Source of the DNA: Candidatus Deferrimicrobiaceae bacterium
Lineage (GTDB): Bacteria > Desulfobacterota > Deferrimicrobia > Deferrimicrobiales > Deferrimicrobiaceae
Reading direction: 5' to 3'
NCBI GenBank assembly: GCA_963792415.1
Contig: CAWBVY010000001.1
Span: 224,001 to 288,000, forward strand
DNA length: 64,000 nt
Translations under genes and position numbers: made by a program
In this document: positions 27,726-47,816 of the stretch, one piece after another
Position numbering within the stretch: the stretch's first letter is position 1
How the letters are laid out: every line of letters starts with the position of its first letter
Notes under the pieces: model-generated
The model's database searches: none
Told to the model about the DNA's origin: nothing
What the model saw: the letters and a program-made list of their open reading frames with translations, nothing else

Positions 27726-28766
27726 TCACACATTGAACCGGACGTGTACGATTTCCCCGTCCTTGACGACGTACTCCTTTCCCTCGAGCCGCAGCTTCCC
27801 TTCCGTCTTCGCCTTCGCCATCGAACCGCACCGGAGGAAATCGTCGGAGGAGATGACCTCCGCCCGGATGAACCCCTTTTCCAGGTCGGAGTGGATCTTC
27901 CCGGCCGCCGTCGGCGCGGTGCTCCCCTCCCGAACGTTCCAGGCGCGGACCTCGTCCTCCCCCACCGTGAGGAAGGAGATGTACCGCGTCGCCTCGAAGG
28001 CCCCGCGAACGAGCTGGTCCCGGGCGGACCGCGCGATTCCCATCTCCTTCAGGAAGTCGGCCTGCTCGGCCGGCGACAGCTGGGCGATCTCCTCCTCCAC
28101 CTTCGCGCACAGGCGCACCAGGGGGACCTTCGCCTTCTCCGCCTCCTTCGTCACCTCGGGGTACGTCTCCGCCGCCCCCTCCGCTTCGCCGACGTTCAGG
28201 ATCAGGAGCGTCGGGAGACGACTCACGAACCGGAACCCCGACAGGACCTTTTCCTCCTCGACCGACAGGTCGACGTTCCGAAGGGGAATCCCCCGCTCGA
28301 ACGCCGCGATCGCCTTGTGCAGCGAGGTCCACTCCGCGTCCCGCTTCGCCTCCTTCGTCATCCGCTCGATCCGCTTCTGCGCGACGAGGTAGTCGGAGAG
28401 GACGAGGGCGGAGGAGAGTTCGCGGAATTCCGCCACAGGGTCCAGGCCGCCGGGAGGCGCCGGGTGGAAGTCGTCGGCGAAGGCCCGGACGACCAGCGCG
28501 AGGACCTCGATGCTCCGAAGCTCCGTGAGGGCCTGCGGGGAGAGAAGATCCGTCTCGCCGGCATCGATGTCGTGGAACGCCATCGAGATGTAGGTGACCT
28601 TCTTCGGGTGGAAGATCTCCGCCAGCCGGTCGACCCGCTCGTCCGGGACCTTGATGGCGCACACCCCCGCGCCCTTCCCCTGGGCGCCCGCCTGCGCTGC
28701 GCCCGAAAGCGAACCGAACAGCGTGCTCTTCCCCGATCCCGTGTTTCCGAAGATCCCGACGTCCAC
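27726..28766 (-). CDS. ychF: YchF/OLA1-family ATPase (divergent)
   Basis: GSGKSTLF, VPDERVDRL, NVGE, EVRAW, AGKIHSDLEKGFIRAEV, EGKEYVVKDG. Confidence 0.88.
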   Translation of the reverse strand: MDVGIFGNTGSGKSTLFGSLSGAAQAGAQGKGAGVCAIKVPDERVDRLAEIFHPKKVTYISMAFHDIDAGETDLLSPQALTELRSIEVLALVVRAFADDFHPAPPGGLDPVAEFRELSSALVLSDYLVAQKRIERMTKEAKRDAEWTSLHKAIAAFERGIPLRNVDLSVEEEKVLSGFRFVSRLPTLLILNVGEAEGAAETYPEVTKEAEKAKVPLVRLCAKVEEEIAQLSPAEQADFLKEMGIARSARDQLVRGAFEATRYISFLTVGEDEVRAWNVREGSTAPTAAGKIHSDLEKGFIRAEVISSDDFLRCGSMAKAKTEGKLRLEGKEYVVKDGEIVHVRFNV

Positions 28767-29877: not shown

Positions 29878-31098
29878 CTACCAGTTGTATCCGGCCTCGC
29901 CGTGCTCCGAGAGGTCCAGCCCCATCATCTCGTCTTCCCGCGATACGCGAAGCCCCATGAGCCTGTCGAGGATCTTGAGCAGCCCGTAGGTCACGGCGAA
30001 GGAGTAGATCAGCACGACCGCGACCGCCAGAAACTGGATCGCGAGCAGCTTCGCGTTCCCGTAAAAGAGGCCGTTCGCCCCGCCCGCGTTGACCACCGTG
30101 GTGGCGAGCAACCCCGTGGCCAGCGCGCCAAGGGTTCCGCCCACGCAGTGCACTCCGACGACGTCGAGGGCGTCGTCGTACCCGAGGCGGCCTTTCATCA
30201 TGACGGCCCCGTAGCAGACCGCCCCCGCCGCCAGCCCGATCGCGATCGCGGAAAGCGGCGTGACGAACCCGGAGGCCGGCGTGATCGCCACCAGCCCGGC
30301 GACGCATCCCGAGGCCGCCCCGAGGACGGTGGGCTTGCGCCGGTGGATCCACTCCGTGCCCAGCCATGAGAGCGTCGCGGACGCCGCCGCAAGATGGGTT
30401 GCCACGAAGGCACTCGTTGCGAGCTCGCCTGCCGCCAGGGCGGATCCGGCGTTGAAGCCGAACCACCCGAACCAGAGGATGGCGGCGCCGATCACCGTCA
30501 TCGGAAGGTTGTGCGGCGCCATGTTGTCCGACCCGAACCCCTTCCGTTTCCCGACGACGAGGGCCGCCGCAAGAGCCGAGACCCCGGACGTGATGTGGAC
30601 GACGGTCCCGCCTGCGAAATCGAGCGCACCGAGGTTCCGGATCCACCCGCCGATCCCCCAGACCCAGTGGGCCACGGGGTTGTACACCAGCAGGGCCCAG
30701 AGCAGGCTGAAGACGAGGAAGGCCGAGAAACGGAACCGCTCCGCGAACGCCCCGGTGATCAGCGCCGGGGTGATGACCGCGAACATCATCTGGTAGACCA
30801 TGAAGGCCTGGTGCGGAACCGTGGCGGCGTACTCCTTGTACGGGGCGAGCCCGACCCCGGAGAGACCGAACCAGGAGAGGTCCCCGATGATCCCCCAGTG
30901 GTCGGGCCCGAAGGCCATGCTGTAGCCGACCAGCGCCCACTCGACGCTGATGAGGCCGATGATGACGAGCGATTGGACGATCGTCCCCAGGATGTTCTTC
31001 CTGCGGACCATCCCCCCGTAGAACAGCGCGAGCCCCGGCGTCATGAACATGACCAGGGCCGCGGACACGAGCAGCCAGGCGGTATCTCCGGTGTTCAT
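29878..31098 (-). CDS. amtB: ammonium transporter
   Basis: GDTAW, MTPGLALFYGG, DFAGGTVVH, WFGWFGFNAGS, DDALDVVGVH. Confidence 0.97.
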   Translation of the reverse strand: MNTGDTAWLLVSAALVMFMTPGLALFYGGMVRRKNILGTIVQSLVIIGLISVEWALVGYSMAFGPDHWGIIGDLSWFGLSGVGLAPYKEYAATVPHQAFMVYQMMFAVITPALITGAFAERFRFSAFLVFSLLWALLVYNPVAHWVWGIGGWIRNLGALDFAGGTVVHITSGVSALAAALVVGKRKGFGSDNMAPHNLPMTVIGAAILWFGWFGFNAGSALAAGELATSAFVATHLAAASATLSWLGTEWIHRRKPTVLGAASGCVAGLVAITPASGFVTPLSAIAIGLAAGAVCYGAVMMKGRLGYDDALDVVGVHCVGGTLGALATGLLATTVVNAGGANGLFYGNAKLLAIQFLAVAVVLIYSFAVTYGLLKILDRLMGLRVSREDEMMGLDLSEHGEAGYNW

Positions 31099-31146
31099 CT
31101 TCGTTTCCTCCCGTTCGTGATGGGTGCCGACCCTCGCATGATGGAT

Positions 31147-31162
31147 AGCAACGGGCGTGCCA
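31147..31162 (-). promoter_or_regulatory. sigma54 (-24/-12) promoter of amtB
   Basis: minus strand TGGCACG-CCCG-TTGCT, matching GG-N10-GC, about 50 bp upstream of the ATG. Confidence 0.88.
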
Positions 31163-31206
31163 CGGGCTGATTCGCCGGAATCCGTGGGATTTTTCCAGGA
31201 CCGCCG

Positions 31207-31234
31207 AAACAGGACAGACAATTTTGTCTTGTTT
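31207..31234. promoter_or_regulatory. candidate enhancer-binding-protein site for amtB
   Basis: inverted repeat AAACAGGACA-N8-TGTCTTGTTT containing GACA-ATTT-TGTC, upstream of the sigma54 promoter. Confidence 0.5.
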
Positions 31235-31379
31235 GCGACATTCATGGCCGACAGGAGACACTTATTTCCGTCATCACGAAGGACCGTTCCATGCAAAGAT
31301 AGCCATCATGCGCCTCCTTGATTCCTTCCGGCACCGCCGGCACCGTTAGCCGATTCGAATCGGATCAGGACCGAGAGCG

Positions 31380-31997
31380 ATGGGTCTCTACACGCGCTTC
31401 CTCCTCCCGAAAATCGTGGACTTCACCTGCCGCACGAAGCCGTGCATGCGGCAGCGCGCGAAAGTCGTTCCCTCCGCCCTGGGGTGCGTCCTCGAGGTGG
31501 GTTTCGGTTCGGGGCGGAACCTGCCCTTCTACGACACGGCGAAGGTACGGCACGTCTGGGCGCTCGATCCCTCCAGGGAGCTGTGGGCCATGGCCGGGGA
31601 GAGGGTCCGCGGCGCCGGCTTCCCCGTCGAGTTCCTGCAGGCCGGGGCCGAGGAGATCCCCCTGCCCGGCCGGAGCGCGGACACCGTTCTCGTGACATTC
31701 ACGCTGTGCACCGTTCCCGACGTCCCGCGGGCGCTTCGCGAGATGGCGCGGGTCCTCAAGCCGGGCGGGGAACTCGTCTTTTCCGAACACGGGCTGGCGC
31801 CGGACGAGAGTGTCCGGCGGTGGCAGAATCGCCTGAACCCGATCTGGAGCGCTTTCGGCGGCGGCTGCAACCTCAACCGGCACATCCCCTCTCTCCTGGA
31901 GGAGGGGGGCTTCCGATTGCACGAGATCTCCTCGATGTATCTCCCGGGGTGGAGACCCGCGAGCTTCACCTACTGGGGGCGCGCCTCGGCAATGTGA
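31380..31997 (+). CDS. class I SAM-dependent methyltransferase (METTL7/PmtA-like)
   Basis: VLEVGFGSGRN, TFTLCTVPD, RVLKPGG, EHG, GGCNLNR. Confidence 0.9.
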   Translation: MGLYTRFLLPKIVDFTCRTKPCMRQRAKVVPSALGCVLEVGFGSGRNLPFYDTAKVRHVWALDPSRELWAMAGERVRGAGFPVEFLQAGAEEIPLPGRSADTVLVTFTLCTVPDVPRALREMARVLKPGGELVFSEHGLAPDESVRRWQNRLNPIWSAFGGGCNLNRHIPSLLEEGGFRLHEISSMYLPGWRPASFTYWGRASAM

Positions 31998-32017
31998 CGG
32001 CCACGAGGGATTTTTCT

Positions 32018-32049
32018 TTGTGGGTGCGGGGCGGGTGAATTACAATCAC
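32018..32049 (+). promoter_or_regulatory. candidate sigma70 promoter of the acs operon with an overlapping palindrome
   Basis: TTGTGG-17 bp-TACAAT; GTGA-N7-TCAC at 32035-32049 overlaps the -10. Confidence 0.45.
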
Positions 32050-32095
32050 TTCCTGTTTGCCCGCCGTGACGCGACCACCGAAGGGAGCCCGCCCG

Positions 32096-34216
32096 ATGCA
32101 CGAACCGCTGTTTTCCGCCTGCCTGCGCGGCGCCGCCGCCGTCCTCTCTCTCACCCGGACCACCCTCGACGCCGCCGCGGCCCGCCGGGGGAAGGACGCG
32201 CCGCTGGCGTACCCCGATACCGCCTACGAACTGCCGGTCGCCTTCGGGCTGACCGACCTTCGGGTGGCGACCCTGGCCGACGCGGGGAAGCTGCTCGACC
32301 TCGCGGGGACGCTCGTGCGGGACGGCGCCACGGCGGAGAACGCCCTCGACGCCGGCGCGGCCACGCTCCTCGCCGCGGACGTGCTCGGGGCGCTCTCCCA
32401 CGAAAAAGGGAACCCGTACCCGCCACCCGCGGTCGGCTTCGTCCCGGACTCCACCCTGCGCAAACTCGGGATCTATCTCGTGGACGGCTCCGTTCCCGGG
32501 GTCGCCGTCCTGATCGGGAAGGCGACGGACCCCGCGGCCGCGGCGGCGATGGTCCGGCAGTTCCAGGAGATCGGGCTCCTCGTCTTCCTCGCGGGGGACG
32601 TCGTCGCGCAGCTCGACGCGCAGGGCGTGAAGCTCGGGGAGGATTTCAAGACGTTCCCACTGGGGCCGCTCCCCGCGGTGATCCACGCCGTCAACTTCGC
32701 CGTCCGCGCCGGGCTCACCTTCGGCGGCATCGGCCGCGGCCAGGGAGCCGCGATGCTCTCCTACCTCGGCAACCGCGTGAAGGCGTTCGTGTGCGCCCTC
32801 GGGCCCCTGGACGACGTCGCCCTCGCCATCGCCGCGGGCGCGATGAAGGCGGGGCTGACGGTCCTGTCCGACCAGCCCGTGCCGGAGATCCCCGGGCTGC
32901 TCCTCTCGCGCCCAGCGGGCGACGGAATGGTTCAAGCGGGGATGGAGGCGCGGGGCATCAAGGTGAAGATGGTGAAGGTGCCGATCCCGATCGCCTTCGG
33001 TCCCGCCTTCGAGGGGGAGCGGATCCGGAAGTCCGACACGCACATCGAGTTCGGAGGCGGGCGCTCCGTGGCCTACGAACTCGTCCGCAGCGCCCCCCCG
33101 GAAGAGGTGATCGACCGGGAGATCGTCGTGGACGGCCCGGATCTCGGGGAACTGCCGGTCGGGAGCGTCCTCCCGCTGGGAATCGTCGTCCGGGTCGCCG
33201 GCGCGCGGATGCAGCACGACTTCGAATCGGTCCTGGAGCGCCGCATCCACCGGATCGTCAATTACGGCGAGGGGACGATGCACGTCGCCCAGCGGGACAC
33301 CACCTGGATCCGCGTCTCGACGGAGGCGGTGGGAAAGGGATTCTCCCTCGCGGACCTCGGCCTCATGCTCTACGCCAAGCTGCACGCGGACTTCGAGAAC
33401 ATCGTGGACAAGGTCGCGGTTTCGATCACGACCCGGCTCGAGGACGTGCAGGCGGGGCTGGCCGGGGCGCGGGCCGCCTACGCCGAGCGCGACGCGCGGG
33501 CGCGCACGCTGACGGACGACGCCGTCTCCGAGTTCTACTCCTGCACCCTGTGCCAGTCGTTCGCCCCCAACCACGTCTGCATCGTCTCCCCCGAGCGCCT
33601 CGGGCTCTGCGGGGCGATCAACTGGCTCGACGGGAAGGCGGGGTTCGAGATCACCCCGACCGGCCCCAACCAGCCGGTGCTGAAGGGGGCGGTCCGGGAC
33701 GCCGTGAAGGGATCGTTCGACGGGGTGAACGCGTTCGTCCGGGAGAATTCGCGCAACACCGTGACCGAGATGAACCTCTACTCCATCATGGAGGCGCCGA
33801 TGACCTCGTGCGGCTGCTTCGAATGCGTCCTCGCCGTCATCCCCGAGGCGAACGGCGTGATGGCGGTCAACCGGGAGTTCACCGGGCTCGAAACGCCGTG
33901 CGGGATGGGGTTCTCGACCCTGGCCGGCTCCGTCGGCGGCGGCGTGCAGACCCCGGGCTTCATGGGAGTGGGGAAGCATTACCTGCTGAGCCGGAAATTC
34001 CTCGGGGCCGAGGGGGGGCTTCCGCGCGTCGTCTGGATGACGCGGGAGATGAAGGAATACCTCGGCCCGCTCCTGCGGGAGCGTGCGGCGGAGATCGGGA
34101 TGCCCGACCTCGTCGATCAGATCGCGGACGAAACGGTCGCGGTGACGCCCGACGCGCTCGTCGAACACCTGGTGAAGGTGGGACACCCCGCCCTCAAGCT
34201 CCCTCCCCTCCTGTGA
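32096..34216 (+). CDS. acsB: acetyl-CoA synthase/decarbonylase subunit (ACS, A-cluster)
   Basis: YPDTAYELP N-terminal domain; AFEGERIRK; A-cluster Cys CTLCQSFAPNHVC..GLCG and PMTSCGCFE. Confidence 0.97.
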   Translation: MHEPLFSACLRGAAAVLSLTRTTLDAAAARRGKDAPLAYPDTAYELPVAFGLTDLRVATLADAGKLLDLAGTLVRDGATAENALDAGAATLLAADVLGALSHEKGNPYPPPAVGFVPDSTLRKLGIYLVDGSVPGVAVLIGKATDPAAAAAMVRQFQEIGLLVFLAGDVVAQLDAQGVKLGEDFKTFPLGPLPAVIHAVNFAVRAGLTFGGIGRGQGAAMLSYLGNRVKAFVCALGPLDDVALAIAAGAMKAGLTVLSDQPVPEIPGLLLSRPAGDGMVQAGMEARGIKVKMVKVPIPIAFGPAFEGERIRKSDTHIEFGGGRSVAYELVRSAPPEEVIDREIVVDGPDLGELPVGSVLPLGIVVRVAGARMQHDFESVLERRIHRIVNYGEGTMHVAQRDTTWIRVSTEAVGKGFSLADLGLMLYAKLHADFENIVDKVAVSITTRLEDVQAGLAGARAAYAERDARARTLTDDAVSEFYSCTLCQSFAPNHVCIVSPERLGLCGAINWLDGKAGFEITPTGPNQPVLKGAVRDAVKGSFDGVNAFVRENSRNTVTEMNLYSIMEAPMTSCGCFECVLAVIPEANGVMAVNREFTGLETPCGMGFSTLAGSVGGGVQTPGFMGVGKHYLLSRKFLGAEGGLPRVVWMTREMKEYLGPLLRERAAEIGMPDLVDQIADETVAVTPDALVEHLVKVGHPALKLPPLL

Positions 34217-35133
34217 GCGTGGCGCTTCCCATCCCGGCCTTTCCCGGGAGGATCCTCGCGGTCACGCTGCCCGCCGGGCCGGGGGGAACCCCCGTCACCG
34301 TGGGGGGGCAGAACGCCTTGCCGCTCCTGCCCGAGGGGGAGCACCCCAACGCTCCCGCGGTGGGGATGGAGGTTCCCACGGGGCCGCTGGAGCTCCCCCC
34401 GGCGCTGGCCGCGGCGATCGGGCCCTTCGCGGGGGACCCCGTCGCGATGGCCCGCAAGTGCGCCGGCGACTGGGGAGCGCGCTTCCTTTTCCTCTCGCTC
34501 GCCGGCTGCCATCCCGACGCGGGGGGGCAGAGCGTTTCGGAAGGCGCGACCATCGTCCGGGAGGTTCTTTCCGCGACGCCCGCCCCGGTGATCGTGGGGG
34601 GATGCGGCGACGAGGAGGTGGACGCCCGGCTCTTCCCCGCCGTCGCGGAGGCGGCCGGACGTCCGGTCTTCCTCTCGTACGCGGAGGAGAAGAACCACCG
34701 TCTCGTCGCGGGCGCGGCGCTTGCGTACGGCCACGGCGTGGTCTCCTGGTCCCCCATCGACATCAACATGGCCAAGCAGATGAACCTCCTCCTCGCCGAC
34801 CTCGGGTTCCCCCCCGATCGCGTCCTCATCGACCCGCTGACGGGAGGCCTCGGCTACGGGATGGAGTACACCTTCTCCATCGTCGAGCGGATCCGCCTTG
34901 CCGGCCTCTCCGGGGATGTGGCGCTCGCCCGCCCGATCTTCTGCCACCTCGGGGACGCGTGGAAGGCGCGGGAGGCGACCGACCCGTCGGAAGGGAGCTG
35001 GGGCGACGCCGGCGCGCGGGGCCCCCGGTGGGAGGAGACGACGGGACTGGCGTGCCTGGCGGCCGGGGCCGACCTGCTCGTCTGCCGCCACCCCTCGAGC
35101 GTGGCGCGCCTGTCGGGGGCAGCGTGGCGCTGA
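34213..35133 (+). CDS. acsD: corrinoid iron-sulfur protein small subunit
   Basis: VTVGGQNALP, SPIDINMAKQMN, DPLTGGLGYGMEY, ERIRLAGL, RHP; GTGA-coupled. Confidence 0.95.
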   Translation: MSVALPIPAFPGRILAVTLPAGPGGTPVTVGGQNALPLLPEGEHPNAPAVGMEVPTGPLELPPALAAAIGPFAGDPVAMARKCAGDWGARFLFLSLAGCHPDAGGQSVSEGATIVREVLSATPAPVIVGGCGDEEVDARLFPAVAEAAGRPVFLSYAEEKNHRLVAGAALAYGHGVVSWSPIDINMAKQMNLLLADLGFPPDRVLIDPLTGGLGYGMEYTFSIVERIRLAGLSGDVALARPIFCHLGDAWKAREATDPSEGSWGDAGARGPRWEETTGLACLAAGADLLVCRHPSSVARLSGAAWR

Positions 35134-36476
35134 CCGCGATCGACATCTACAAGCTGCTTCCGAAGACCAACTGCAAGGAGTGCGGCCAGCCGACGTGCCT
35201 GGCCTTCGCGATGCAGATCGCGGCCGGGAAGGCGTCGATCGACCTGTGCCCGCCCGCCTCGGAAGAGGCGAAGGAGAAGCTGTCCGCCGCCGCCGCGCCG
35301 CCGCTGCCGAAGGTGACGATCGGAACCGGGGAGCGCGAGGTCGTCCTCGGCGACGAGACGGTCCTCTTCCGGCACGAGAAGACCTTCTACCACCCGACGG
35401 CGATCGCCGTTTCGATCCGGGACGACGCGTCGGACGGGGAGTTCGCATCGCGGCTCGCGGCGATCCGGAGCCTCTCGTTCGAGCGGGTCGGACAGCGGAT
35501 CTCCGTCGACCTCGTCGCCCTCCGCTGCGCCTCCGGGGACGCGGGCCGGTACTCCCGCGCGGCCGCCGCCGCGCTCGAGGCGACGGGACTCCCCCTCGTC
35601 CTCCTCGCACCGGCGGGACCGCTCGCCGCGGCGGTGGAGGCGGTGGCGCCTTCCCGGCCGCTCCTCGCGCCCCCGCCGGAGGACCTCGTCCCCGCGGCGA
35701 AGCTCGCCGCGGAAAGGAAACTCCCCCTGCGGGTGCGGGCCCGGGGAATCGAGGGACTTTCCGTCGCGCTGGCCGACGCCCGCGCCGCCGGGGCCGCCTC
35801 GCTGGTCGCCGACCCCTCCCCGGAAACGCCCCGGGAGGCCGTCTCCCTTTCCACGGACCTGCGACGGCTGGCGATCCTCGGAAGGGTCCGCGACCTCGCG
35901 TACCCATCCGCGTTCGACCTCGGCGGCGGGTTCCCGGACCCGTTCCTCGCCGCGGCGCTCCTCGTGGCGAAGTACGGCTCGCTCCTCGTGCTGGACTCCG
36001 CGGACCCGGCGGACCTGCTGCCGCTGCTCACGCTTCGGCAGAACCTGTTCACCGACCCGCAGCGCCCGATCCAGGTGGAACCCGGCGTCTACCCGATCGG
36101 TGGACCGTCCGAATCGTCGCCCGTCATCATCACCACCAACTTCTCCCTCACCTACTTCACCGTCCGTGGCGACGTCGAGGCGGCGAAGGTCCCCGCGCAC
36201 CTCCTCATCGCCGACGTCGACGGCATGTCCGTCCTGACCGCGTGGGCGGCCGGGAAGTTCACCGGCGAGTCGATCGCGAAGATGCTCGCCGAGTGCGGGA
36301 TCGGGGAGAAGGTGGCCCACCGGACCCTCGTCCTTCCCGGCATGGTCGCGCGCCTCTCCGGCCGGATCGAGGAGCTGTCCGGGTGGCGGGTCCTCGTCGG
36401 CCCGCAGGAGTCGTCCGCCCTCCCGTCGTACCTGCGCCGCCTTCCGCCGGACGCCTTCCTCCCCGTTCATGGTTGA
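35124..36476 (+). CDS. acsC: corrinoid iron-sulfur protein large subunit
   Basis: IYKLLPKTNCKECGQPTCLAFA..CP [4Fe-4S]; FRHEKTF; TDPQRP; TTNFSLTY; SVLTAWAAGKF. Confidence 0.96.
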   Translation: MALTAIDIYKLLPKTNCKECGQPTCLAFAMQIAAGKASIDLCPPASEEAKEKLSAAAAPPLPKVTIGTGEREVVLGDETVLFRHEKTFYHPTAIAVSIRDDASDGEFASRLAAIRSLSFERVGQRISVDLVALRCASGDAGRYSRAAAAALEATGLPLVLLAPAGPLAAAVEAVAPSRPLLAPPPEDLVPAAKLAAERKLPLRVRARGIEGLSVALADARAAGAASLVADPSPETPREAVSLSTDLRRLAILGRVRDLAYPSAFDLGGGFPDPFLAAALLVAKYGSLLVLDSADPADLLPLLTLRQNLFTDPQRPIQVEPGVYPIGGPSESSPVIITTNFSLTYFTVRGDVEAAKVPAHLLIADVDGMSVLTAWAAGKFTGESIAKMLAECGIGEKVAHRTLVLPGMVARLSGRIEELSGWRVLVGPQESSALPSYLRRLPPDAFLPVHG

Positions 36477-38145
36477 CGGTCGGGGGGCGATCCGCTTCCA
36501 CCCCGAGGGGATCGACGTCCCCTTCGTCCCCGGGGAATCGCTGCTCGCCCACGCAATCCGCGGCGGCGTCCCGCTCCTCTCTCCGTGCGGCGGGGAGGGC
36601 CGGTGCGGGAAGTGCCGGGTCCTGGTGAGCGGCGGGACCCGCGGCGGGGAGGACCCGGGGGCGCTCACCCGGGCGGAAATCGCCGCGGGAATCCGCCTCG
36701 CGTGCCGCTGCATCCCCTCCTCCGGCGACGTCTCCGTGACGATCCTTCCCGGGAGCCGGCCCGCCCGCCTCGCGGCGTACCTCGACGGAAAGGACCTGGC
36801 GGGGGACGAGCCGTTCCTTCCCCTGTCCCGCGCCGCGTCGGGGGGCGCCCCGCTCGGCGTGGCGCTGGACCTGGGGACGAGCACCCTGGCGGGCACGCTC
36901 GTGGATCTCTCGGACGGAACCGTCCTGGCCCGCGCGACGGGGGACAACCCGCAGATGGCGTGCGGCGAGGACCTCATCTCCCGCGTGGTGTTCGCCGAAG
37001 AGACGACCGGCGGGTTCGAACTGCTGCGGGGGCAGCTCCTTTCGGGGGTGGACGGCCTGGTGCGAAGACTCCTCGAAGCCTCGCCGGCGCCGGGGGAAGT
37101 CACCGACGTCGTCGCCGCGGGAAACACCGTCATCTCCCACTTCCTGTACGGGATCTCCCCCTCCCCGATCCGGCGGCCGCCGTACCATCCGGTCCGGAAG
37201 GAGTACCCCGTCGTCCCGGGGGAAACCCTGGGGACCGGCCCGGAGACGGCGCGGGCCCTATGGCGGATCTTCCCGTCCCTCGGGGGATTCGTCGGCGGCG
37301 ACGTGGTGGCGGGGATTCTCGCCTCGGGGATGCACCGGCAGGAGGAGGTCAGCCTGCTCTTCGACGTCGGCACCAACGGCGAGGTGGTGCTGGGGAACCG
37401 GGAGTGGCGGATCGCCTGCTCCTCCTCGGCCGGGCCCGCCTTCGAAGGGGGCGAGGTCGGCTGCGGCATGCGCGCGTACCCGGGGGCGATCGAGTCGGTC
37501 CGGATCGAACCGGGGACCGCGGCGGCGGAGTGGACGGTGATCGGGCGGGGCCGGCCGGCCGGCCTGTGCGGCTCGGGAATCCTCGACCTGTGCGCGGAGC
37601 TGTTCCGGGCCGGGATCGTCGATCGGGCGGGACGGTTCACCTCGCGCGGCTCCGGGGGGCGCCGCCTCACGGAACGCGGCGAAGCGTTCGTCGTGGTCCC
37701 CGGGGAGAAGAGCGCCACGGGGCGCGACGTATCCTTCCGCGAGTCGGACCTGAAAAGCATCCTTCGGACGAAAGCCGCCCTCTGCGCGGCCGCCGAGGCG
37801 CTGCTCGCCGCGGTGGGGCTCCCGCTGGAGGCGGTCGCGCGCGTCTACGTCGCCGGGGGGTTCGGCAACTTCCTCGACCTGCGCTCCGCCCTCACCATCG
37901 GGCTCTTCCCCCCCATCCCCCTCGCCCGGTTCGTTCCGCTGGGAAACGCGTCGCTGGCCGGCGCGCTCGGCGCGCTGCGCAACCGGCGGCGCTGGAAGGA
38001 GGCGCTTTCGCTCGCGACCGGGACGGTGTACCACGACCTGTCGTCCGATCCGGGCTTCATGGAGCTGTACCAGCGCGGCCTCTTCCTCCCCCACACCGAC
38101 GAGGAGAGCTACCGTTCCGTGCTCGCCGCGGAGGTGACGGCATGA
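36469..38145 (+). CDS. acsV: ATP-dependent reductive activator of corrinoid protein (RACo/AcsV, ASKHA/DUF4445)
   Basis: N-terminal [2Fe-2S] CGGEGRCGKC...LAC; DLGTST; DVGTNGE; SAGPAFEG; AGGFGN; FLPHT. Confidence 0.93.
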   Translation: MVDGRGAIRFHPEGIDVPFVPGESLLAHAIRGGVPLLSPCGGEGRCGKCRVLVSGGTRGGEDPGALTRAEIAAGIRLACRCIPSSGDVSVTILPGSRPARLAAYLDGKDLAGDEPFLPLSRAASGGAPLGVALDLGTSTLAGTLVDLSDGTVLARATGDNPQMACGEDLISRVVFAEETTGGFELLRGQLLSGVDGLVRRLLEASPAPGEVTDVVAAGNTVISHFLYGISPSPIRRPPYHPVRKEYPVVPGETLGTGPETARALWRIFPSLGGFVGGDVVAGILASGMHRQEEVSLLFDVGTNGEVVLGNREWRIACSSSAGPAFEGGEVGCGMRAYPGAIESVRIEPGTAAAEWTVIGRGRPAGLCGSGILDLCAELFRAGIVDRAGRFTSRGSGGRRLTERGEAFVVVPGEKSATGRDVSFRESDLKSILRTKAALCAAAEALLAAVGLPLEAVARVYVAGGFGNFLDLRSALTIGLFPPIPLARFVPLGNASLAGALGALRNRRRWKEALSLATGTVYHDLSSDPGFMELYQRGLFLPHTDEESYRSVLAAEVTA

Positions 38146-39182
38146 CCGCGTTGCCGGGCCTCTTCCCGTGCACGGGCGTGGGGTCCCTGCCGCACCTCGA
38201 TCCCCGCGCCGCCGTGGCGGAGGTCCTGTCCCGTTTCCGGGAAATCCCGTACTGGCCGCAGCTCCCGCGCCGGACGCCGCTCGAGCACATGTACCCGCAA
38301 TTCGCCGCGGCCCTCCCCGGGGCTTCGGTCGTCGGGGAGCGCCTGACGATGAAGAGCGGGGAGGAGCTTCTCCCGGACGCGGAGGCGTTCTACGGGAAGT
38401 TCCTCTCGGACGATCTCTCCCCCTTCGCCGTCCCCGCGGAGCGCGCGGCCGGCCTGCACGCCATGCTGGAAGCCGGCGGCGGCCCCTTCCCCGCGGTGAA
38501 GGGCCAGGTGACCGGGCCCGTCTCCTTCGGGCTCATGGTGTGCGACCGGGAGAAGAAACCGGTCTTCTACGACCCCGTGGGCCGGGACATCCTGGTCAAG
38601 TACCTGCTCCGCGTCGCCCAGTGGCAGGCCGAACAGCTTCGCCGCCTCTCCGGAACCGTGATCCTGACGCTGGACGAGCCGTACCTCGCCTCCGTGGGAT
38701 CCGCCATCGTCGCGCTCCCGCGGGAGGAGGTGATCGCCGCCCTCGACGAGATCTTCGACGGGCTGCCCGGCGTCCTGTGCGGGATCCACTGCTGCGCGAA
38801 CACCGACTGGGGGCTGGTCCTCGCCTCGAAGGTCCGGTACCTCTCCTTCGACGCCTACGAGTACGCCGACTCGCTCCTCCTCTACCCGGAGGAGGTCTCC
38901 GCGTTCCTCGCCCGCGGCGGGGTGCTCGCCTTCGGGGTGATCCCCACCGCGCGCGAGGCGATCGCGGCCGAGACGCCGGAATCGCTCGCCGAACGGATGG
39001 AGCGGATTCTCGACCGGTACGCCTCCCGGGGGATTTCACGGGAAGCGATGGTCCGTGCCTCCGTGATCACCCCGGCGTGCGGTCTCGGGACCTTGCCCGA
39101 GGAGTCCGCGGAGCGCGCGCTGCGGCTGACCGTGGAGCTGTCGGGCCTGCTGCGGACCCGGTACGGGGGGAGCCCATCGTGA
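38142..39182 (+). CDS. core (single-barrel, folate-independent) methionine synthase, MesB-like
   Basis: 346 aa MetE C-terminal-like barrel: TGVGSLPH, WPQLP, KGQVTGP, DEP; Zn ligands GIHCCANTDW, SFDAY, TPACGLG; no N-terminal folate-binding barrel. Confidence 0.85.
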   Translation: MTALPGLFPCTGVGSLPHLDPRAAVAEVLSRFREIPYWPQLPRRTPLEHMYPQFAAALPGASVVGERLTMKSGEELLPDAEAFYGKFLSDDLSPFAVPAERAAGLHAMLEAGGGPFPAVKGQVTGPVSFGLMVCDREKKPVFYDPVGRDILVKYLLRVAQWQAEQLRRLSGTVILTLDEPYLASVGSAIVALPREEVIAALDEIFDGLPGVLCGIHCCANTDWGLVLASKVRYLSFDAYEYADSLLLYPEEVSAFLARGGVLAFGVIPTAREAIAAETPESLAERMERILDRYASRGISREAMVRASVITPACGLGTLPEESAERALRLTVELSGLLRTRYGGSPS

Positions 39183-39930
39183 CATTGCGGATCGCCGTCG
39201 CCGGCAAGGGGGGGGTCGGCAAGACCACCTGCTCCGCGCTGCTGCTGCGCGCGCTGGCGTTGTCGGGCGTCCGTCCCCTTCTCGCCGTGGACGCCGACCC
39301 CAACGCGAACCTGCACCAGCTCCTCTCGCTCCCTCTCCCCGAGGGGCTCGGCTCCCTCCGGGAGGAACAGCGGACGGCGGCGGGCGGGGCGGTTTCCCTC
39401 CCGGACCGGATCGCCTCCGAGGTGGAGCGGCGGGTATCCGAGGGGGAAGCGGTGGATCTCATCGCGATGGGGCGCGGCGAGGGGCCGGGGTGCTACTGCT
39501 ACGTGAACAACCTGCTCCGCGAGGCGCTCGACCGGATCGAGGGCGGCTACCGGGCCGTCGTGGTGGACAACGAGGCGGGGATGGAGCACCTCTCCCGGCG
39601 GTCGACGCGGCGGATCGATCACCTCGTCCTGGTGGGCGACCCTTCCCGGCGCGGCATGGATGCCGTGGCGGCCCTGCGGGAGCTGGCCGCGGAGCTCGCC
39701 CTCCCGGTCGGGAAGACGTGGCTCCTCCTCAACCGCCCGTACGGCGTCCACGGCAACGCCCCGTCGGAGGCCCTCGGGCTCCCGCTCCTGGCGGCGCTCC
39801 CGCACGACCCGCGGCTTCCCTCCTGGGAAACGGAGGGGCGGTCGTTCCTCGCCCTTCCCCCCGGGGAGTCCCCCGCGGCGGACGCCGTCGCGGCCGCTCT
39901 CCGGACCTCCCTTCTCGGATCCGCCCGTGA
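39179..39930 (+). CDS. cooC: CooC/AcsF nickel-insertion ATPase; probable frameshift near 39900
   Basis: AGKGGVGKTT, DADPN, GPGCYC, DNEAGMEHLSR; as read the frame stays open to 40639, but one extra base near 39900 gives a stop at 39930 coupled to the next gene. Confidence 0.88.
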
Positions 39931-40607
39931 AGGTCCTCTTCGCGACCCAGGGGAAGTACGGCGAGCGGATCGCGGACTACATCGCCGCGAACCGACCGGA
40001 AGGGTGGGAGACCCTCCGCCTGCCGCTGCGACGAACCCTTCCGTTGGTGATCGACGATCCGGACGAGGTCCTGCCGGCCGCGATTCCCCCCGCCGACCTG
40101 CTCGTCTCCCTCCACGAGTCGGCGGGGGCCGCGGAACTGATCCCCGACATCGCGCGGCGGTGCGGCGCCGCCGCCGTCCTCGCCGCCGTCGACGACCGGG
40201 CCGCCTGCCCGCGCGGGCTGGAGAACCAGATCGGGAAGCGGCTCGGGGCGATGGGGGTGGCGTTCGCCTTCGCCCGGCCCCTGTGCGGGTTCGACGGCGG
40301 GCCCCACCCGCTGCTGTCGGCGTTCGCGGAGCGGTTCGGACGGCCGAGGATGCGGATCGACGCCGACGGGGACCGGGTCGGCCTCGTGACGGTCGAGCGG
40401 GACTGCCCGTGCGGCGCGGGACGGTTCGTGGCGAAGGTCCTGCCGGGGACGCGCCTGTCGGAGGCGGCGGACACCGGCGCGCTGCGGCACCACCACCACC
40501 CGTGCATGGCGTCGATGGAGGTCGACCCGGAATTGTCCGACACGCTGATGCACCTGTCGGGCTACATCTTCCGAGCCGCCATCAACGCGGGTTTGCGGCG
40601 GAAGTGA
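39927..40607 (+). CDS. DUF166-family protein (Cys/His-rich, function unknown)
   Basis: GKYGERI, VIDDPDEVLP, RPLCG, FGRP, RDCPCG, HHHHPCMAS, LMHLSG match my recollection of DUF166. Confidence 0.75.
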   Translation: MKVLFATQGKYGERIADYIAANRPEGWETLRLPLRRTLPLVIDDPDEVLPAAIPPADLLVSLHESAGAAELIPDIARRCGAAAVLAAVDDRAACPRGLENQIGKRLGAMGVAFAFARPLCGFDGGPHPLLSAFAERFGRPRMRIDADGDRVGLVTVERDCPCGAGRFVAKVLPGTRLSEAADTGALRHHHHPCMASMEVDPELSDTLMHLSGYIFRAAINAGLRRK

Positions 40608-40690
40608 CGGCGATTCGGGACGACGGAAGGGGCGGCTGAGTTCCCTAACCAGATAACGGGTCTACTGGACCGTCACACCATTTTGGGTTG

Positions 40691-40728
40691 AAAAAAAGGA
40701 CGGAGCCTTGCGGCCCCGTCCTTTTTCT
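40691..40728. terminator. bidirectional intrinsic terminator
   Basis: A7-GGACGGAGCC-TTGC-GGCCCCGTCC-T5 between convergent transcription units. Confidence 0.8.
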
Positions 40729-40760
40729 TAATCAAGCACGTTAGGAAACAAGCCCTCTTA

Positions 40761-42305
40761 TTACCACCCGACCGCAGCTCCGTCCTTTCTCAGTTCCGAC
40801 CCCGCGCGGTAGATCCCGTTGAGCGGTTCCTGGTGCGCAACACCTTTTCCGCCCTTGCCACCGGGGACCGTCGGCTCCGGCAGGCTGTAATCCCTCTCGA
40901 ACAGGATCCCCTGGTAGCCGCCGCCGAGCCCTCTGGACCGTCTCGTCGTATGCCCCCAGGCCGTCATTTCCGTATTGACGATATCGTACAGGTAATAATC
41001 CAGGCTCACCCTGTCGGATCCCTGGTCGTGATCGAACCGGGCTGCATCAGAGGTGGCCTGCACGTTATAGGCTAGGTCGATCATGTTGACGACGGCGGCG
41101 AGATCAAACGGTTTTGCCTCGGCGCACACCTCGAGGATGTTGAGCATCTCCAGCGCGGCCCACCCTTGGCTCGGGGGCGGCGTTTCGTAGATGTCATACC
41201 CGTGGTAACTGGTCTTGAGAGGGTCCTCCCATCTCGCCTCGTATTTCTTCAGGTCGTCCATGGTCCAAAACTGTTTTACGCCCGGAGGGAGAATGACTCC
41301 CAAAGAATTCGCCTTATTCACGATCGCCTGGGCGATCTCCCCCTTGTAAAAGGCGTCGACGCCTTTTTTCTGGAGCACTTCGAACGTGTGCCCCATGTCC
41401 GGATTCTTGAAGATGCTGTACAACCCTGGCACACTTCCTCCCTTGCAGTACACATTGGGGGTGTCGGGATCGACAGCCGAATTACACAGGGTGTTCCTGT
41501 TACTGTAAAAGTTGGCCGCAAGCACCTCATGCACCGGGAACCCTTCAACGGCACTCTTGCGAGCGGGTTCGAGCACTTCCTTGAAGGTCATGGTGCCGAA
41601 TTCCAATTGCTTCACAAGGCGGCAGAGATGTTGCGGTGTAAGGGCCAGCAGCTGTGCCACCTCCCAATTCTTCAAGATCATTTGAATCTTTATCGGTTTA
41701 TTTTGATCGGACCCGTTTTGGGTCTGGACCAACTTCCAAAGGAACTTCTCCAGGCGGTGTCTTCCGGAGAGGCACGACTTCTCGATAATACCGAGCATGC
41801 TGTATCTCACCGCTCTGCTTAAGAGGATCGATATCCATCGGGAGAATTCCGGATTTGTATCCATCAACTTATTGAACGTTTCTATCGGGACAAAGCACAA
41901 TTTGCTCCGGGTGATCGCCTCGGCAGTAACTGCATAAGGCATCTTTAGAAAGAATGAAACAACACCCAACATAGCCCCCCGCTCCCGTATCCCGACGATT
42001 ATCCGGCTACCATCGGATTCAGTGCGGGTCAGCTTCACCAGTCCGCTGCATATGAAGCATACGGAGTGGGGAGATTCGCCTTGGGAAAAGATCTCGTGTT
42101 CCGGAGAAACGACTCTTACCGTTTTACAGTTGAAAAACTTCTTGAGTTGTCCCAGGCAAGGGAGGTTGGGTTCGCCTCCGTGGGTGTCATGATTATTTTC
42201 AACGGGGCGGAGATTCCCGTTGAAGGACGCTGGGGACGTAGAGGTAGTGGATTCAGGTTGGAGAGCGGGGTCTTTTCCGGGAAAGGAATCCACCATTCCA
42301 GGCAC
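40761..42305 (-). CDS. chimeric ORF: Crp/Fnr-family regulator fused in frame to an internally deleted gamma-glutamyltransferase (possible pseudogene)
   Basis: IFSQGE..ICSGLVKL..GAMLG and HTH VAQLLALTPQHLCRLVKQLE, then GGT motifs FGTMTF..EGFPV, AFYKGEIA, PPPSQG, RKDGAAVGW; catalytic Thr segment absent; start uncertain. Confidence 0.75.
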   Translation of the reverse strand: MPGMVDSFPGKDPALQPESTTSTSPASFNGNLRPVENNHDTHGGEPNLPCLGQLKKFFNCKTVRVVSPEHEIFSQGESPHSVCFICSGLVKLTRTESDGSRIIVGIRERGAMLGVVSFFLKMPYAVTAEAITRSKLCFVPIETFNKLMDTNPEFSRWISILLSRAVRYSMLGIIEKSCLSGRHRLEKFLWKLVQTQNGSDQNKPIKIQMILKNWEVAQLLALTPQHLCRLVKQLEFGTMTFKEVLEPARKSAVEGFPVHEVLAANFYSNRNTLCNSAVDPDTPNVYCKGGSVPGLYSIFKNPDMGHTFEVLQKKGVDAFYKGEIAQAIVNKANSLGVILPPGVKQFWTMDDLKKYEARWEDPLKTSYHGYDIYETPPPSQGWAALEMLNILEVCAEAKPFDLAAVVNMIDLAYNVQATSDAARFDHDQGSDRVSLDYYLYDIVNTEMTAWGHTTRRSRGLGGGYQGILFERDYSLPEPTVPGGKGGKGVAHQEPLNGIYRAGSELRKDGAAVGW

Positions 42306-45249: not shown

Positions 45250-45440
45250 CCGGCAGTTCCACTCCCCCGTTTTCTCTCGAATAAACCCCCGTGATCCGTA
45301 TCGGCGGAACGCCCTCGGAACTTCACGGGAGTTCCCCGATCCGACGGCATTCTATCAAACCACGGGTCCCTGACGCGATTATGGCGGACAAATCCGAAAA
45401 TATGTACACTGTCGACAATATCATGTAACGGGAGATGCGG

Positions 45441-46826
45441 ATGGCGAACGGGGCACGAAGCGACTCCATCGTGAGGGGATTCGTCCACTCTTCGGTGTTC
45501 TGGCTGCTGGTCGGGCTGGTGGTCGGTCTGTGGCTGGCGGCCGAGATGATCTATCCGGCCCTGAACCTTGCGCCGTGGCTCGCTTTCGGGCGCCTGCGCG
45601 TGGTCCACACCAACGGGCTGATCTACGGGGCCACGCTCGGCGGGATCTTCGCCTGCAGTTATTACATGCTCGAAAAGTTGACCCGGAGCCCGATCGCGTT
45701 CCCGGGCCTCGCGAAAACCCAGCTCTGGCTGTTCAATATCGCGATAGCGCTCGCGGCCCTCTCGCTGTTCGCCGGGTGGAACACCTCCAAGGAGTACGCG
45801 GAGCTCGAGTGGCCCCTCGACATCGTGGTGGTGGCCCTGTGGGTGATGTTCGCGGTCAACGTGATGGGAACGCTCGTCAAGCGGCGGGAGAAGCAGATGT
45901 ACGTCTCCCTCTGGTTCATCATCGCCTGCGTGGTCACGGTGGCGGTCGTCTACATCCTCAACAACCTGGCGATCCCGGTCAGCCTCTCCAAATCGTACTC
46001 GGCGTACGCCGGCGTAAACGACGCCAACGTCCAGTGGTGGTTCGGGCACAACGCCGTCGCCTCGGTCTTCACCTTCCCGATCCTCGCGATGTTCTACTAC
46101 TTCCTCCCGAAGTCCACCGGCCTGCCGATCTACAGCCACCGCCTCTCCATCATCGCCTTCTGGTCCCTCGTCTTCGGCTACCTGTGGACCGGGGCGCACC
46201 ACCTGATGCTGAGCCCGGTGCCCGAGTGGATCCAGACGGTCGCGCTGGGCTTCAGCCTGTTCCTCATCGCCCCCTCCTGGGCCTCGGTCATCAACGGCTT
46301 CTACACGATGAACGGGAACTGGGACCAGATGAAGTCGAACTACCTGGTCAAGTTCTTCATTCTCGGGATCACCTTCTACGGGCTCCAGACGATCCAGGGG
46401 CCGACCCAGGCGATCCGGGCGCTTTCCGCCCACCTCCACTACACCGAGTACATCCCCGGCCACGTCCACATGGGGACGATGGGGTGGGTGACGATGACCA
46501 TCACGGCGTCGATGTATTTCATGATGGCGAAGATCTCCGGCCGGGAGGTCCACAGCGTCAGGCTGGCGAACGTCCATTTCTGGCTGATCCTCGTGGGGCA
46601 GCTCCTGTTCACCGTGACCTTGTGGATCGCCGGCATCGTCCAGGGGGCCATGTGGAAGGCCACCAACCCCGACGGATCCCTCATGTACACGTTCCTCGAC
46701 TCCGTGGCGGCGATGTACCCGTACTGGGCCGTGCGGCTCCTCGGCGGCCTTCTCTACTTCGCCGGGATCGCGGTCTTCACCTACAACCTCTACATGACGT
46801 CACGGCCGAAAGCCCGGGCGGTGTGA
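45441..46826 (+). CDS. ccoN: cbb3-type cytochrome c oxidase subunit I
   Basis: FGRLRVVHTN, KEYAELEW, QWWFGHN, YLWTGAHH, GHVH. Confidence 0.95.
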   Translation: MANGARSDSIVRGFVHSSVFWLLVGLVVGLWLAAEMIYPALNLAPWLAFGRLRVVHTNGLIYGATLGGIFACSYYMLEKLTRSPIAFPGLAKTQLWLFNIAIALAALSLFAGWNTSKEYAELEWPLDIVVVALWVMFAVNVMGTLVKRREKQMYVSLWFIIACVVTVAVVYILNNLAIPVSLSKSYSAYAGVNDANVQWWFGHNAVASVFTFPILAMFYYFLPKSTGLPIYSHRLSIIAFWSLVFGYLWTGAHHLMLSPVPEWIQTVALGFSLFLIAPSWASVINGFYTMNGNWDQMKSNYLVKFFILGITFYGLQTIQGPTQAIRALSAHLHYTEYIPGHVHMGTMGWVTMTITASMYFMMAKISGREVHSVRLANVHFWLILVGQLLFTVTLWIAGIVQGAMWKATNPDGSLMYTFLDSVAAMYPYWAVRLLGGLLYFAGIAVFTYNLYMTSRPKARAV

Positions 46827-46829
46827 CCG

Positions 46830-47816
46830 ATGAAAATCGACAGCCTCTATGAAAAGCCGGTTCTCTTCGCCCTCGCGGCGGTGGTCGTCATCTCGGTCGG
46901 GACGCTGGTCACGACCTTCATCCCCCTCTTCCTCCCGTCGACCCAGCCGGTCAGCCCCCTGATCAAGCCGTACACGGCCGTCGAGACGGAAGGGAGGGAC
47001 ATCTACATCCGTGAAGGGTGCAACAATTGCCACACCCAGACGGTGCGGCCGCTGCGCACCGAAGTCGCCCGGTACGGCGAATACTCCAGGGCGGAGGAGT
47101 CGGCCTGGGACCGCCCGTTCCTCTGGGGTTCCCGTCGCACGGGGCCGGACCTCGCCCGCGCGGGGGGAAAGTATCCCGACGCGTGGCAGTATCGCCACAT
47201 GGCGAACCCGCAGTCGATGTTCTCAACGTCGAACATGCCCGCGTACCCCTGGCTCGCGAAAGCGAAGCTCGACACCTCCCTGACGGCCAGGAAGGTGAAG
47301 ACCCTCGGATTCGGCTACGACGAGGCGGAGGTCGCCCGGCAGCTGGCCGACTTCCGGCAGGCGGTCACGGCGCCGACCTATCCGTCCGCGCAGGTCCGCG
47401 CCCAGGTGACGCCGCCCGCCCTTCGGGGGGAGATCACCGAGCTCGACGCGCTGGTGGCGTATCTCCAGAAGCTGGGGCGGGACCTGAAATCGGCGCAGAA
47501 ACCCCCGGCGGGGCCCGCGACCGCCGAGGCGGCGGAGGCGAAGAACCCGTACGCCGGAAATCCCGCGGCCGAGGAGGAAGGCGAGAAGATCTTCGAGCAG
47601 AATTGCCGGAGCTGCCACGGTGAAAAGGGCGCCGGGGGGTTCGGCCCGAAGCTGGCGACGACCGCCCACAAGTTCGGAGGATCGGACGCGGATCTGTTCG
47701 CCTCCGTCGCCGGGGGCCGCCCCGGAGGGATGCCCGCGTTCCTTCCGCAACTGGGGAAGGAACGGGTCTGGAAGGCGGTCGCCTACATCCGGCACCTGGA
47801 ACGGGAAGGTCGATGA
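46830..47816 (+). CDS. ccoO: cbb3 oxidase subunit II fused to an extra C-terminal cytochrome c domain
   Basis: GRDIYIREGCNNCHTQ, WGSRRTGPDL, MPAY, LVAYLQKLG; second heme CRSCH..GMPAF. Confidence 0.92.
   Translation: MKIDSLYEKPVLFALAAVVVISVGTLVTTFIPLFLPSTQPVSPLIKPYTAVETEGRDIYIREGCNNCHTQTVRPLRTEVARYGEYSRAEESAWDRPFLWGSRRTGPDLARAGGKYPDAWQYRHMANPQSMFSTSNMPAYPWLAKAKLDTSLTARKVKTLGFGYDEAEVARQLADFRQAVTAPTYPSAQVRAQVTPPALRGEITELDALVAYLQKLGRDLKSAQKPPAGPATAEAAEAKNPYAGNPAAEEEGEKIFEQNCRSCHGEKGAGGFGPKLATTAHKFGGSDADLFASVAGGRPGGMPAFLPQLGKERVWKAVAYIRHLEREGR

Follow-up and report, generated by a model that had tools for sequence, protein, structure and literature searches.

We analyzed a 64,000-nucleotide stretch of DNA from a Candidatus Deferrimicrobiaceae bacterium (positions 224,001 to 288,000 of contig CAWBVY010000001.1, GenBank assembly GCA_963792415.1), a sediment organism, and refer to this whole stretch as the window. 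At 32096-40607 on its plus strand lie seven genes, namely acsB, acsD, acsC, RACo (acsV), mesB, cooC, and DUF166, in DNA with a G+C content of 70-74%. Together they encode an acetyl-CoA synthase (ACS), a corrinoid iron-sulfur protein (CoFeSP) with its activator, a homolog of the single-barrel methionine synthases, and a pair of putative nickel-maturation proteins. The close homologs are named Candidatus Deferrimicrobium or Deferrimicrobiaceae (formerly MBNT15). Profile searches against Pfam and NCBIfam, joined for mesB by the family evidence given below, bear out the seven gene identities proposed in a first-pass annotation of the window.

The first gene, acsB (32096-34216), encodes a bacterial-type ACS of 706 residues with an N-terminal domain of the kind that docks carbon monoxide dehydrogenase (CODH). 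The protein matches NF040764 at 906.7 bits (cut-off 800) over residues 11-705, as well as PF18537 (CODH_A_N), PF03598 (CdhC), and PF19436 (ACS_CODH_B_C). It keeps the cysteine cluster C483/C486/C495/C505 and the C572-G-C574 motif, and its nearest proteins outside the clade, at ≈50% identity, come from Sporomusa, Acetonema, and other Bacillota. Judged by its sequence, AcsB is an ordinary bacterial enzyme. The next two genes encode the CoFeSP: acsD (34213-35133, with a GTG start) specifies the small (delta) subunit of 306 residues, which matches NF003376 at 281.5 bits (cut-off 280) and PF03599, and acsC (35124-36476) specifies the large (gamma) subunit, which carries an Fe-S motif at its N terminus and a corrinoid domain at its C terminus and matches NF003195 at 516 bits (cut-off 306), PF04060, and PF03599. 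RACo/acsV (36469-38145) encodes the ATP-dependent reductive activator of the corrinoid protein. Its 2Fe-2S and ASKHA regions match PF00111, PF17651, and PF14574 (the Fer2, RACo middle, and RACo C-terminal domains), and its score against NF040756, 420 bits, is under the cut-off of 800. After mesB (38142-39182), which encodes a core methionine synthase homolog of 346 residues, come cooC (39179-39930), for a CooC/AcsF-type nickel-insertion ATPase with a PF01656 match and with a P-loop and a C-x-C motif in its translation, and DUF166 (39927-40607), for a protein of 226 residues that matches PF02593 at 141 bits and is a conserved partner of the preceding CooC.

The genes are tightly packed, with overlaps of 4 nt at acsB/acsD, RACo/mesB, and mesB/cooC and of 8 nt at acsC/RACo. 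The start of acsC is most likely the in-frame GTG at 35124, which gives a 10-nt overlap with acsD, because the codon at 35130 is CTG. The first-pass annotation had described seven overlapping, coupled genes between a candidate promoter and a strong terminator, with no cooS, acsE, fhs, folD, or metF alongside. The coupling holds from acsB through the start of cooC but not at the cooC/DUF166 junction, where cooC has no in-frame stop. The terminator is well supported: a hairpin at 40686-40733 on the plus strand (dG −27.1 kcal/mol, z −4.68, with none of 200 shuffled sequences as stable) is followed by a U tract. The promoter, by contrast, fell away. A −35/−10 pair at 32019-32046 on the plus strand (TTGTGG, a 17-nt spacer, and TACAAT) had been picked out by eye and is unsupported, since a consensus scan of 31000-41200 returned no promoter-like sites. 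None of the five listed genes is found in the neighborhood of the operon in the window. Across the whole window no Rfam family reached its gathering score, and the DNA upstream of acsB gave no credible match.

Identity of the MesB protein

The protein encoded at 38142-39182 could not be placed by Pfam and NCBIfam alone. It scores 18 bits against PF01717, below the cut-off of 21, and has no other Pfam domain; the PF01717 model fails for the MesB family generally, with none of three homolog-bearing genomes over the cut-off. An exhaustive search recovered 2013 cluster representatives at E ≤ 0.001, 430 of them at E ≤ 1e-30, and most are ≈345 residues long. In an alignment of 37 sequences, D178-E179-P180, H216, C218, and D237 never vary, and at least 90% of the sequences keep S15 and C313. 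As described in the available text of Price 2021 (PMC7857596), the zinc ligands of MesB follow the order His-x-Cys, Asp, and Cys, with Asp at the third position (Asp or Glu generally), and homocysteine is bound by Ser433 and Asp599 in Escherichia coli MetE. Mapped by motif context and not by alignment to E. coli MetE, the putative zinc ligands H216, C218, D237, and C313 and the homocysteine residues S15 and D178 match this MesB pattern.

The AlphaFold model of the protein (predicted local distance difference test score, 95) has as its best match in the PDB the Thermotoga maritima MetE with zinc and homocysteine, followed by MetE of fungi and plants and by 3RPD, a MesD structure, with MtaA-like and UroD barrels further down the list. 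It is a single MetE-type catalytic barrel that has no folate-binding domain at its N terminus, as is characteristic of MesB, and AcsC and AcsD are encoded in the same operon, as is characteristic of genomes that carry MesB. A PDB sequence search returned only de novo designed repeat proteins, which we discarded as chance matches to an Ala/Leu-rich helix.

Price 2021 delimits MesB, in the text available, by a phmmer score of at least 130 bits to DET0516. Matches to our protein occur in 30 of 41 genomes of a family titled Dehalococcoidaceae, mostly as a single match per genome, and 28 of the 30 best matches score 250-292 bits at 38-45% identity. A cluster named for Methanomassiliicoccales, an order reported to have MesB only (Price 2021), scores 282 bits. 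These matches serve as proxies for DET0516 and place the score above the threshold by proxy only; on the evidence as a whole we assign the protein to the MesB (core-MetE) family, in agreement with the identity first proposed for it. In a FastTree phylogeny of 98 sequences, the clade formed by the window protein and its relatives is monophyletic (support 100) on a stem of 0.62. It falls between the MesB sequences of Chloroflexota and those of other Desulfobacterota, separate from the latter and joined next to the former with weak support. A predicted complex of AcsD, the AcsC corrinoid domain (residues 312-450), and MesB scored 0.24 against a mark of 0.32 and is neutral as to binding.

Gene content of the genome and its relatives

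Eleven contigs make up the genome, which totals 2.84 Mb and has a completeness rating of 100%. Our searches span 97.5% of it, with 72 kb of contig C6 (792001-864000) outside, and all statements of absence for this genome refer to that portion. We found no cooS, the only match (19 bits) being a hydroxylamine reductase/Hcp that scores 815 bits against its own model. Nor did we find Fhs, a full-length MetE, or a Mo-type CO dehydrogenase. Because pterin-binding domains are confined to dihydropteroate synthase (303 bits, cut-off 162.6) and MetH, there is also no AcsE.

To place these absences in a wider context, we turned to a set of 77 genomes of the class (Deferrimicrobiaceae/MBNT15), whose kinship means that they do not count as independent observations. 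Here mesB and acsB co-occur: mesB is found in 46 of the 77 genomes and AcsB in 50, or in 48 when only strong matches are counted. Fhs is found in none of the 77, and in none does a protein exceed the cut-off of the AcsE model; the best matches to that model reach 107-123 bits and belong to open reading frames of 588-851 residues in genomes without the acs operon. Since none of the 77 has AcsE or Fhs, the only methyltransferase encoded with this corrinoid protein is MesB. A cooS gene over the cut-off is present in 27 of the genomes, or in 30 if three partial genes are included.

The gene order itself is conserved, as a survey of 80 genome loci (with three further loci, L119, L120, and L121, seen in addition) makes clear. 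The full order recurs in 10 of the 80, all of MBNT15 type and with 63-97% protein identity, and again in L120. In L121 (G252:C4:90000-109900) the order is kept from acsB to cooC, with no match to DUF166 in the 6.6 kb downstream. Elsewhere in the Desulfobacterota, acs genes lie within 10 kb of mesB in only one of the 20 best loci, and the Chloroflexota loci among the 80 mostly have mesB alone. In five pairwise comparisons with relatives, the ratio of nonsynonymous to synonymous substitution rates (dN/dS) is 0.07-0.32 across the operon, and all seven genes are under purifying selection.

The first-pass annotation had called the system CODH-less. That description fits the operon and this genome but not the whole lineage. 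In a simple tally, in which related genomes are again not independent, 26 of the 48 genomes that match AcsB strongly have cooS, against 4 of the 29 others. In these relatives cooS is unlinked to the acs operon and sits in a cluster of cooF, cooS, a gene for an FAD/NAD (pyridine-nucleotide) oxidoreductase, and cooC. In same-genus relatives the cluster is followed by nap genes. One such locus, L087 (10346-19917; G215:C19), carries the four genes in this order and then napA-like, ferredoxin, and napB-like genes. The CooC of the island is 35% identical to that of the operon. In five of six same-genus loci, the upstream flank of the cooS island is collinear with contig C10 of our genome, with four stopping at 27909-27921 and the fifth at 28333; in the sixth, the other flank is, at C10 27222-27871. 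At the collinear empty site of our genome, C10 ≈27871-27921, the island is absent and the contig runs through. Because C10 is continuous at the matching site, the absence of cooS is a genuine difference in gene content and not an assembly gap. From these gene inventories, CODH is lacking in this genome and in 21 other relatives with AcsB, and its lack does not characterize the operon's whole lineage. The enrichment of cooS among operon-bearing relatives fits a recovery of electrons from CO. The variability of CooS among such close relatives hints that some strains lose CO as a by-product and that others recover it.

Predicted function of the operon and competing explanations

From the gene content described above, we think it fairly probable that the operon is a self-contained module that passes acetyl-CoA's methyl group to the corrinoid protein and from there to homocysteine, with release of CO, as an accessory and folate-independent route to methionine. 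In this scheme, AcsB would split acetyl-CoA and hand its methyl group to the Co(I) of AcsCD, and the zinc enzyme MesB would move the methyl group from the corrinoid protein to homocysteine to form methionine. CO would be the by-product and would leave the cell here, where no CO-oxidizing enzyme was found; in about half of the relatives, the unlinked module of CooF, CooS, and the oxidoreductase could recover its electrons. RACo would re-reduce oxidized corrinoid with ATP. The cooC-DUF166 pair would mature the nickel site of AcsB. This role is probable by analogy with a methanogen pair discussed below, and because the operon has no CODH, the client of the pair could only be AcsB. We infer the direction of flow, the transfer from CoFeSP to MesB, the release of CO, and the physiological role from the genes and their arrangement.

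Several findings weigh against this interpretation or narrow it. MetH is present in the genome (982.5 bits on the 1070 residues submitted), a fused homocysteine methyltransferase/MetF (methylenetetrahydrofolate reductase; 705 bits, cut-off 453) adjoins it, and FolD is present as well. By homology, the genome has a complete folate-dependent route from methylenetetrahydrofolate to methionine. Because MetH, MetF, and FolD are present, the operon would be an additional route, dispensable for methionine. MetH likewise occurs in 63 of the 77 class genomes, with or without the operon, and we found no relative in this set in which the operon MesB is the only candidate methionine synthase. Two genomes, G197 and G247, have no MetH match; each has a second MetE-C-terminal-like open reading frame distinct from the operon MesB. 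Such second frames lie at G197:C55:4819-5913, G247:C7:7837-8862, and G246:C98:32292-33344 and score 77-93 bits against the MetE model. No SAM (S-adenosylmethionine) or cobalamin riboswitch or other regulatory tie to methionine was found in the Rfam searches. In G136, a same-genus genome that is 99% complete, the syntenic locus L119 keeps mesB alone, and acsB-acsD-acsC-RACo and cooC-DUF166 are gone. Because mesB persists there without acs genes, MesB may not strictly depend on this CoFeSP. The remnant locus (G136:C51:64500-84400) is syntenic with window positions 19761-44675; just upstream of its mesB is a 776-bp stretch similar to G000:C7:230397-231172, where G000 is our genome, and ≈4.8 kb of unrelated DNA follows.

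The proposal of the first-pass annotation, a stand-alone, folate-independent route in which the methionine synthase takes the place of AcsE, therefore survives in part: MesB is the only methyltransferase encoded with the corrinoid protein, but the genome encodes the folate route too. The finding that it had named as fatal to the proposal, cooS plus acsE and a complete methyl branch elsewhere in the genome, did not emerge from the searched portion, which has no cooS, acsE, or fhs; folD, metF, and metH are present, and cooS occurs in some relatives.

Among the alternatives, the strongest is that MesB acts on a substrate other than homocysteine or serves another corrinoid protein, with ACS and CoFeSP having a different methyl partner. 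We regard this as unlikely. The presence of MetH, the isolated mesB of G136, and the long stem (0.62) that sets the MBNT15 clade apart from other Desulfobacterota MesB all speak for it, and Price 2021, in the text available, cautions that a MesB-like protein might do a different job where the genome has another methionine synthase. On the other side, the homocysteine-binding Ser and Asp (of the DEP motif) and all four zinc ligands are conserved, as mapped by motif context, 10 of the 80 loci have mesB embedded in the operon and translationally coupled to both neighbors, and the class encodes no further methyltransferase together with the CoFeSP.

Somewhat less probable is that the module is decaying or inactive in this genome, a reading for which the cooC gene speaks. 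The length of 39179-39930 does not divide by three, and cooC, read in frame 2, misses the TGA at 39928-39930 and runs open as far as 40639. All nine orthologous loci examined have one more base, and in these CooC ends at 249-250 residues in an NTGA overlap with DUF166. The 1-nt deletion, which lies within 39900-39935, reflects either a misassembly or a true frameshift, and the latter would add ≈237 out-of-frame residues to CooC across DUF166. Because the G+C bias at third codon positions leaves the cooC frame for that of DUF166 at ≈39930, the long extension does not appear to be coding by composition. Environmental contigs from three runs carry an extra G behind 39924 (X2, 16.7 of 16.7 depth; X15, 12.3 of 26.6; X16, 4.71 of 10.6); they come from relatives and do not bear on error versus mutation in this organism. 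None of the sequencing runs holds more than 0.62 of the sampled words. The deletion of most of the operon in G136, the patchiness of the operon in the family (a strong AcsB in 48 of 77 genomes), and the absence of the cooS island here could also be taken as signs of decay. Against this, the open reading frames other than cooC are intact, without internal stops, the catalytic motifs of AcsB and MesB are in place, and the dN/dS values against five relatives are low, at the 0.07-0.32 given above; the deletion alters only the last CooC residues and could reflect a misassembly at a G/C run. In two RNA libraries, contigs span every one of the operon's 30 bins, a weak hint in favor of the methyl-transfer module from data that, being contigs throughout, are uninformative on transcript ends and expression level.

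A folate-free flow in the opposite direction seems improbable. MesB would then act as a methyltransferase from methionine or methylated sulfur compounds to the CoFeSP, and AcsB would combine the methyl group with CO to form acetyl-CoA; the CO would come from the environment or, in relatives, from the unlinked CooS. AcsB is a full-length canonical synthase, ≈50% identical to acetogen enzymes, CooS accompanies the operon in 26 of 48 relatives, and RACo would be needed in either direction. If correct, this reading would describe a new minimal use of CO and methyl groups in a respiring bacterium. However, thioethers, methionine among them, donate methyl groups poorly, which counts against it. This genome also holds no CO source, with neither cooS nor a Mo-type CODH. 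The characterized MesB, moreover, runs from methylcobalamin to homocysteine, as stated in the available text of Deobald 2020 (PMC7005905). The last alternative, an ordinary split Wood-Ljungdahl pathway with its missing genes elsewhere in the genome, is very improbable: the 72 kb of contig C6 outside the search, the cooS of relatives, and the presence of FolD and MetF would leave room for it, but the searched 97.5% of the genome, whose completeness is put at 100%, yielded no cooS, AcsE, or Fhs, none of the 77 class genomes has AcsE or Fhs, and C10 is continuous without cooS at the island site, where five of six same-genus flanks are collinear.

Neighboring genes were considered separately. A gene for an SAM-dependent methyltransferase at 31380-31997, upstream of acsB, was a candidate member of the operon. 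Because it has no match beside the operon in related loci that hold acsB and upstream DNA, we left it out of the unit; its sole match among the 80 loci is in L043, at 31% identity, ≈3.6 kb from mesB and on the opposite strand. Downstream, an open reading frame on the minus strand (40761-42305) has the unusual pairing of a cyclic-nucleotide-binding domain with a partial gamma-glutamyltranspeptidase (profile positions 96-246 of 512). Genes for a cbb3-type cytochrome oxidase (ccoN with ccoO/ccoP-like) occupy 45429-47816; their position 5 kb downstream of an operon whose nickel enzymes are oxygen-sensitive suggests a facultative or microaerobic lifestyle.

Comparison with known systems

The idea that acetyl-CoA supplies methionine's methyl group has been published already and is still hypothetical (Deobald 2020, PMC7005905; Price 2021, PMC7857596). 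According to the text available, Deobald 2020 suggested for Dehalococcoides that AcsCD passes the methyl group directly to core-MetE, and offered this to explain the missing CODH, AcsE, and MetF. Price 2021 defined MesB, tied it to CoFeSP by phyletic pattern, and asked for a biochemical test of CoFeSP as the donor; the physiological methyl donor of MesB-type enzymes is so far a prediction. For MBNT15, Begmatov 2022 reported genomes without Fhs and a complete CODH/ACS as having an "incomplete Wood-Ljungdahl pathway," and the available text of that paper does not mention methionine. In the literature searched, supplements aside (the S1 Table of Price 2021 could list such genomes), we found no published reading of the MBNT15 operon as a methionine methyl module. 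Our analysis adds that AcsE and Fhs are absent across the class, that MetH and MetF occur alongside the operon, and that the cooS island varies and has an empty site here; it also adds the purifying selection, the cooC defect, and the G136 remnant. It offers a concrete reading of the incomplete pathway noted for MBNT15/Deferrimicrobiota, and it warns that the presence of acsB, acsC, and acsD is not to be scored as evidence of autotrophy. The operon could also serve as a compact test bed for the CoFeSP-to-MesB hypothesis, as AcsB, both CoFeSP subunits, the activator, MesB, and the nickel-maturation pair come in one piece of DNA with no CODH or AcsE in the operon to confound.

Canonical CODH/ACS operons such as those of Sporomusa and Acetonema share with ours an AcsB that is ≈50% identical over its full length, AcsC, AcsD, RACo/AcsV, and CooC-type maturases. 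They differ in that ours has a mesB gene instead and that acsA/cooS and acsE are found neither in the operon nor in the searched genome, which also has no Fhs. In terms of the canonical Wood-Ljungdahl pathway, the CODH partner of ACS is missing, as are AcsE and a full methyl branch, of which FolD and MetF are present.

Parallels are also found in archaea. The mesB-acsC-acsD operons of methanogens (Price 2021, in the text available) likewise link mesB to CoFeSP genes, in archaeal hosts. At a Methanomassiliicoccaceae locus, L079, RACo, mesB, and cooC stand in the same order as here, with acsC, acsD, and acsB adjacent; in contrast to our operon, the acs genes lie on the other strand, there is no DUF166 match, and the proteins are 40-52% identical to ours. 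In Methanococcus maripaludis, a cooC2-DUF166 pair beside the CODH/ACS genes is required for CODH/ACS-dependent autotrophy and is cofit with them, according to the available text of the report (bioRxiv 10.1101/2024.03.05.583561). In both systems a CooC paralog is followed directly by DUF166 beside ACS genes; the pair described here differs in closing a CODH-less operon, and the likeness is one of gene arrangement.

Among the systems closest to ours is the proposed pathway of Dehalococcoides mccartyi, with its core-MetE/MesB cbdbA481 (DET0516). As far as the available text of the published accounts goes, both have AcsB and AcsCD and lack CODH and AcsE, and in both a MesB-type single-barrel enzyme is the proposed acceptor of the CoFeSP methyl group, with CO as by-product. 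In D. mccartyi, however, there is no MetF, MetH, or MetE, and the pathway figure includes Fhs, whereas MetH and MetF are present and Fhs is absent here. The role of MesB as sole methionine synthase in the Dehalococcoides-type pathway does not carry over to our genome, which has MetH and a fused MetF and lacks MetE. The genomic setting differs as well: the core-metE of D. mccartyi lies with genes of the SAM cycle, and mesB here lies inside the acs operon.

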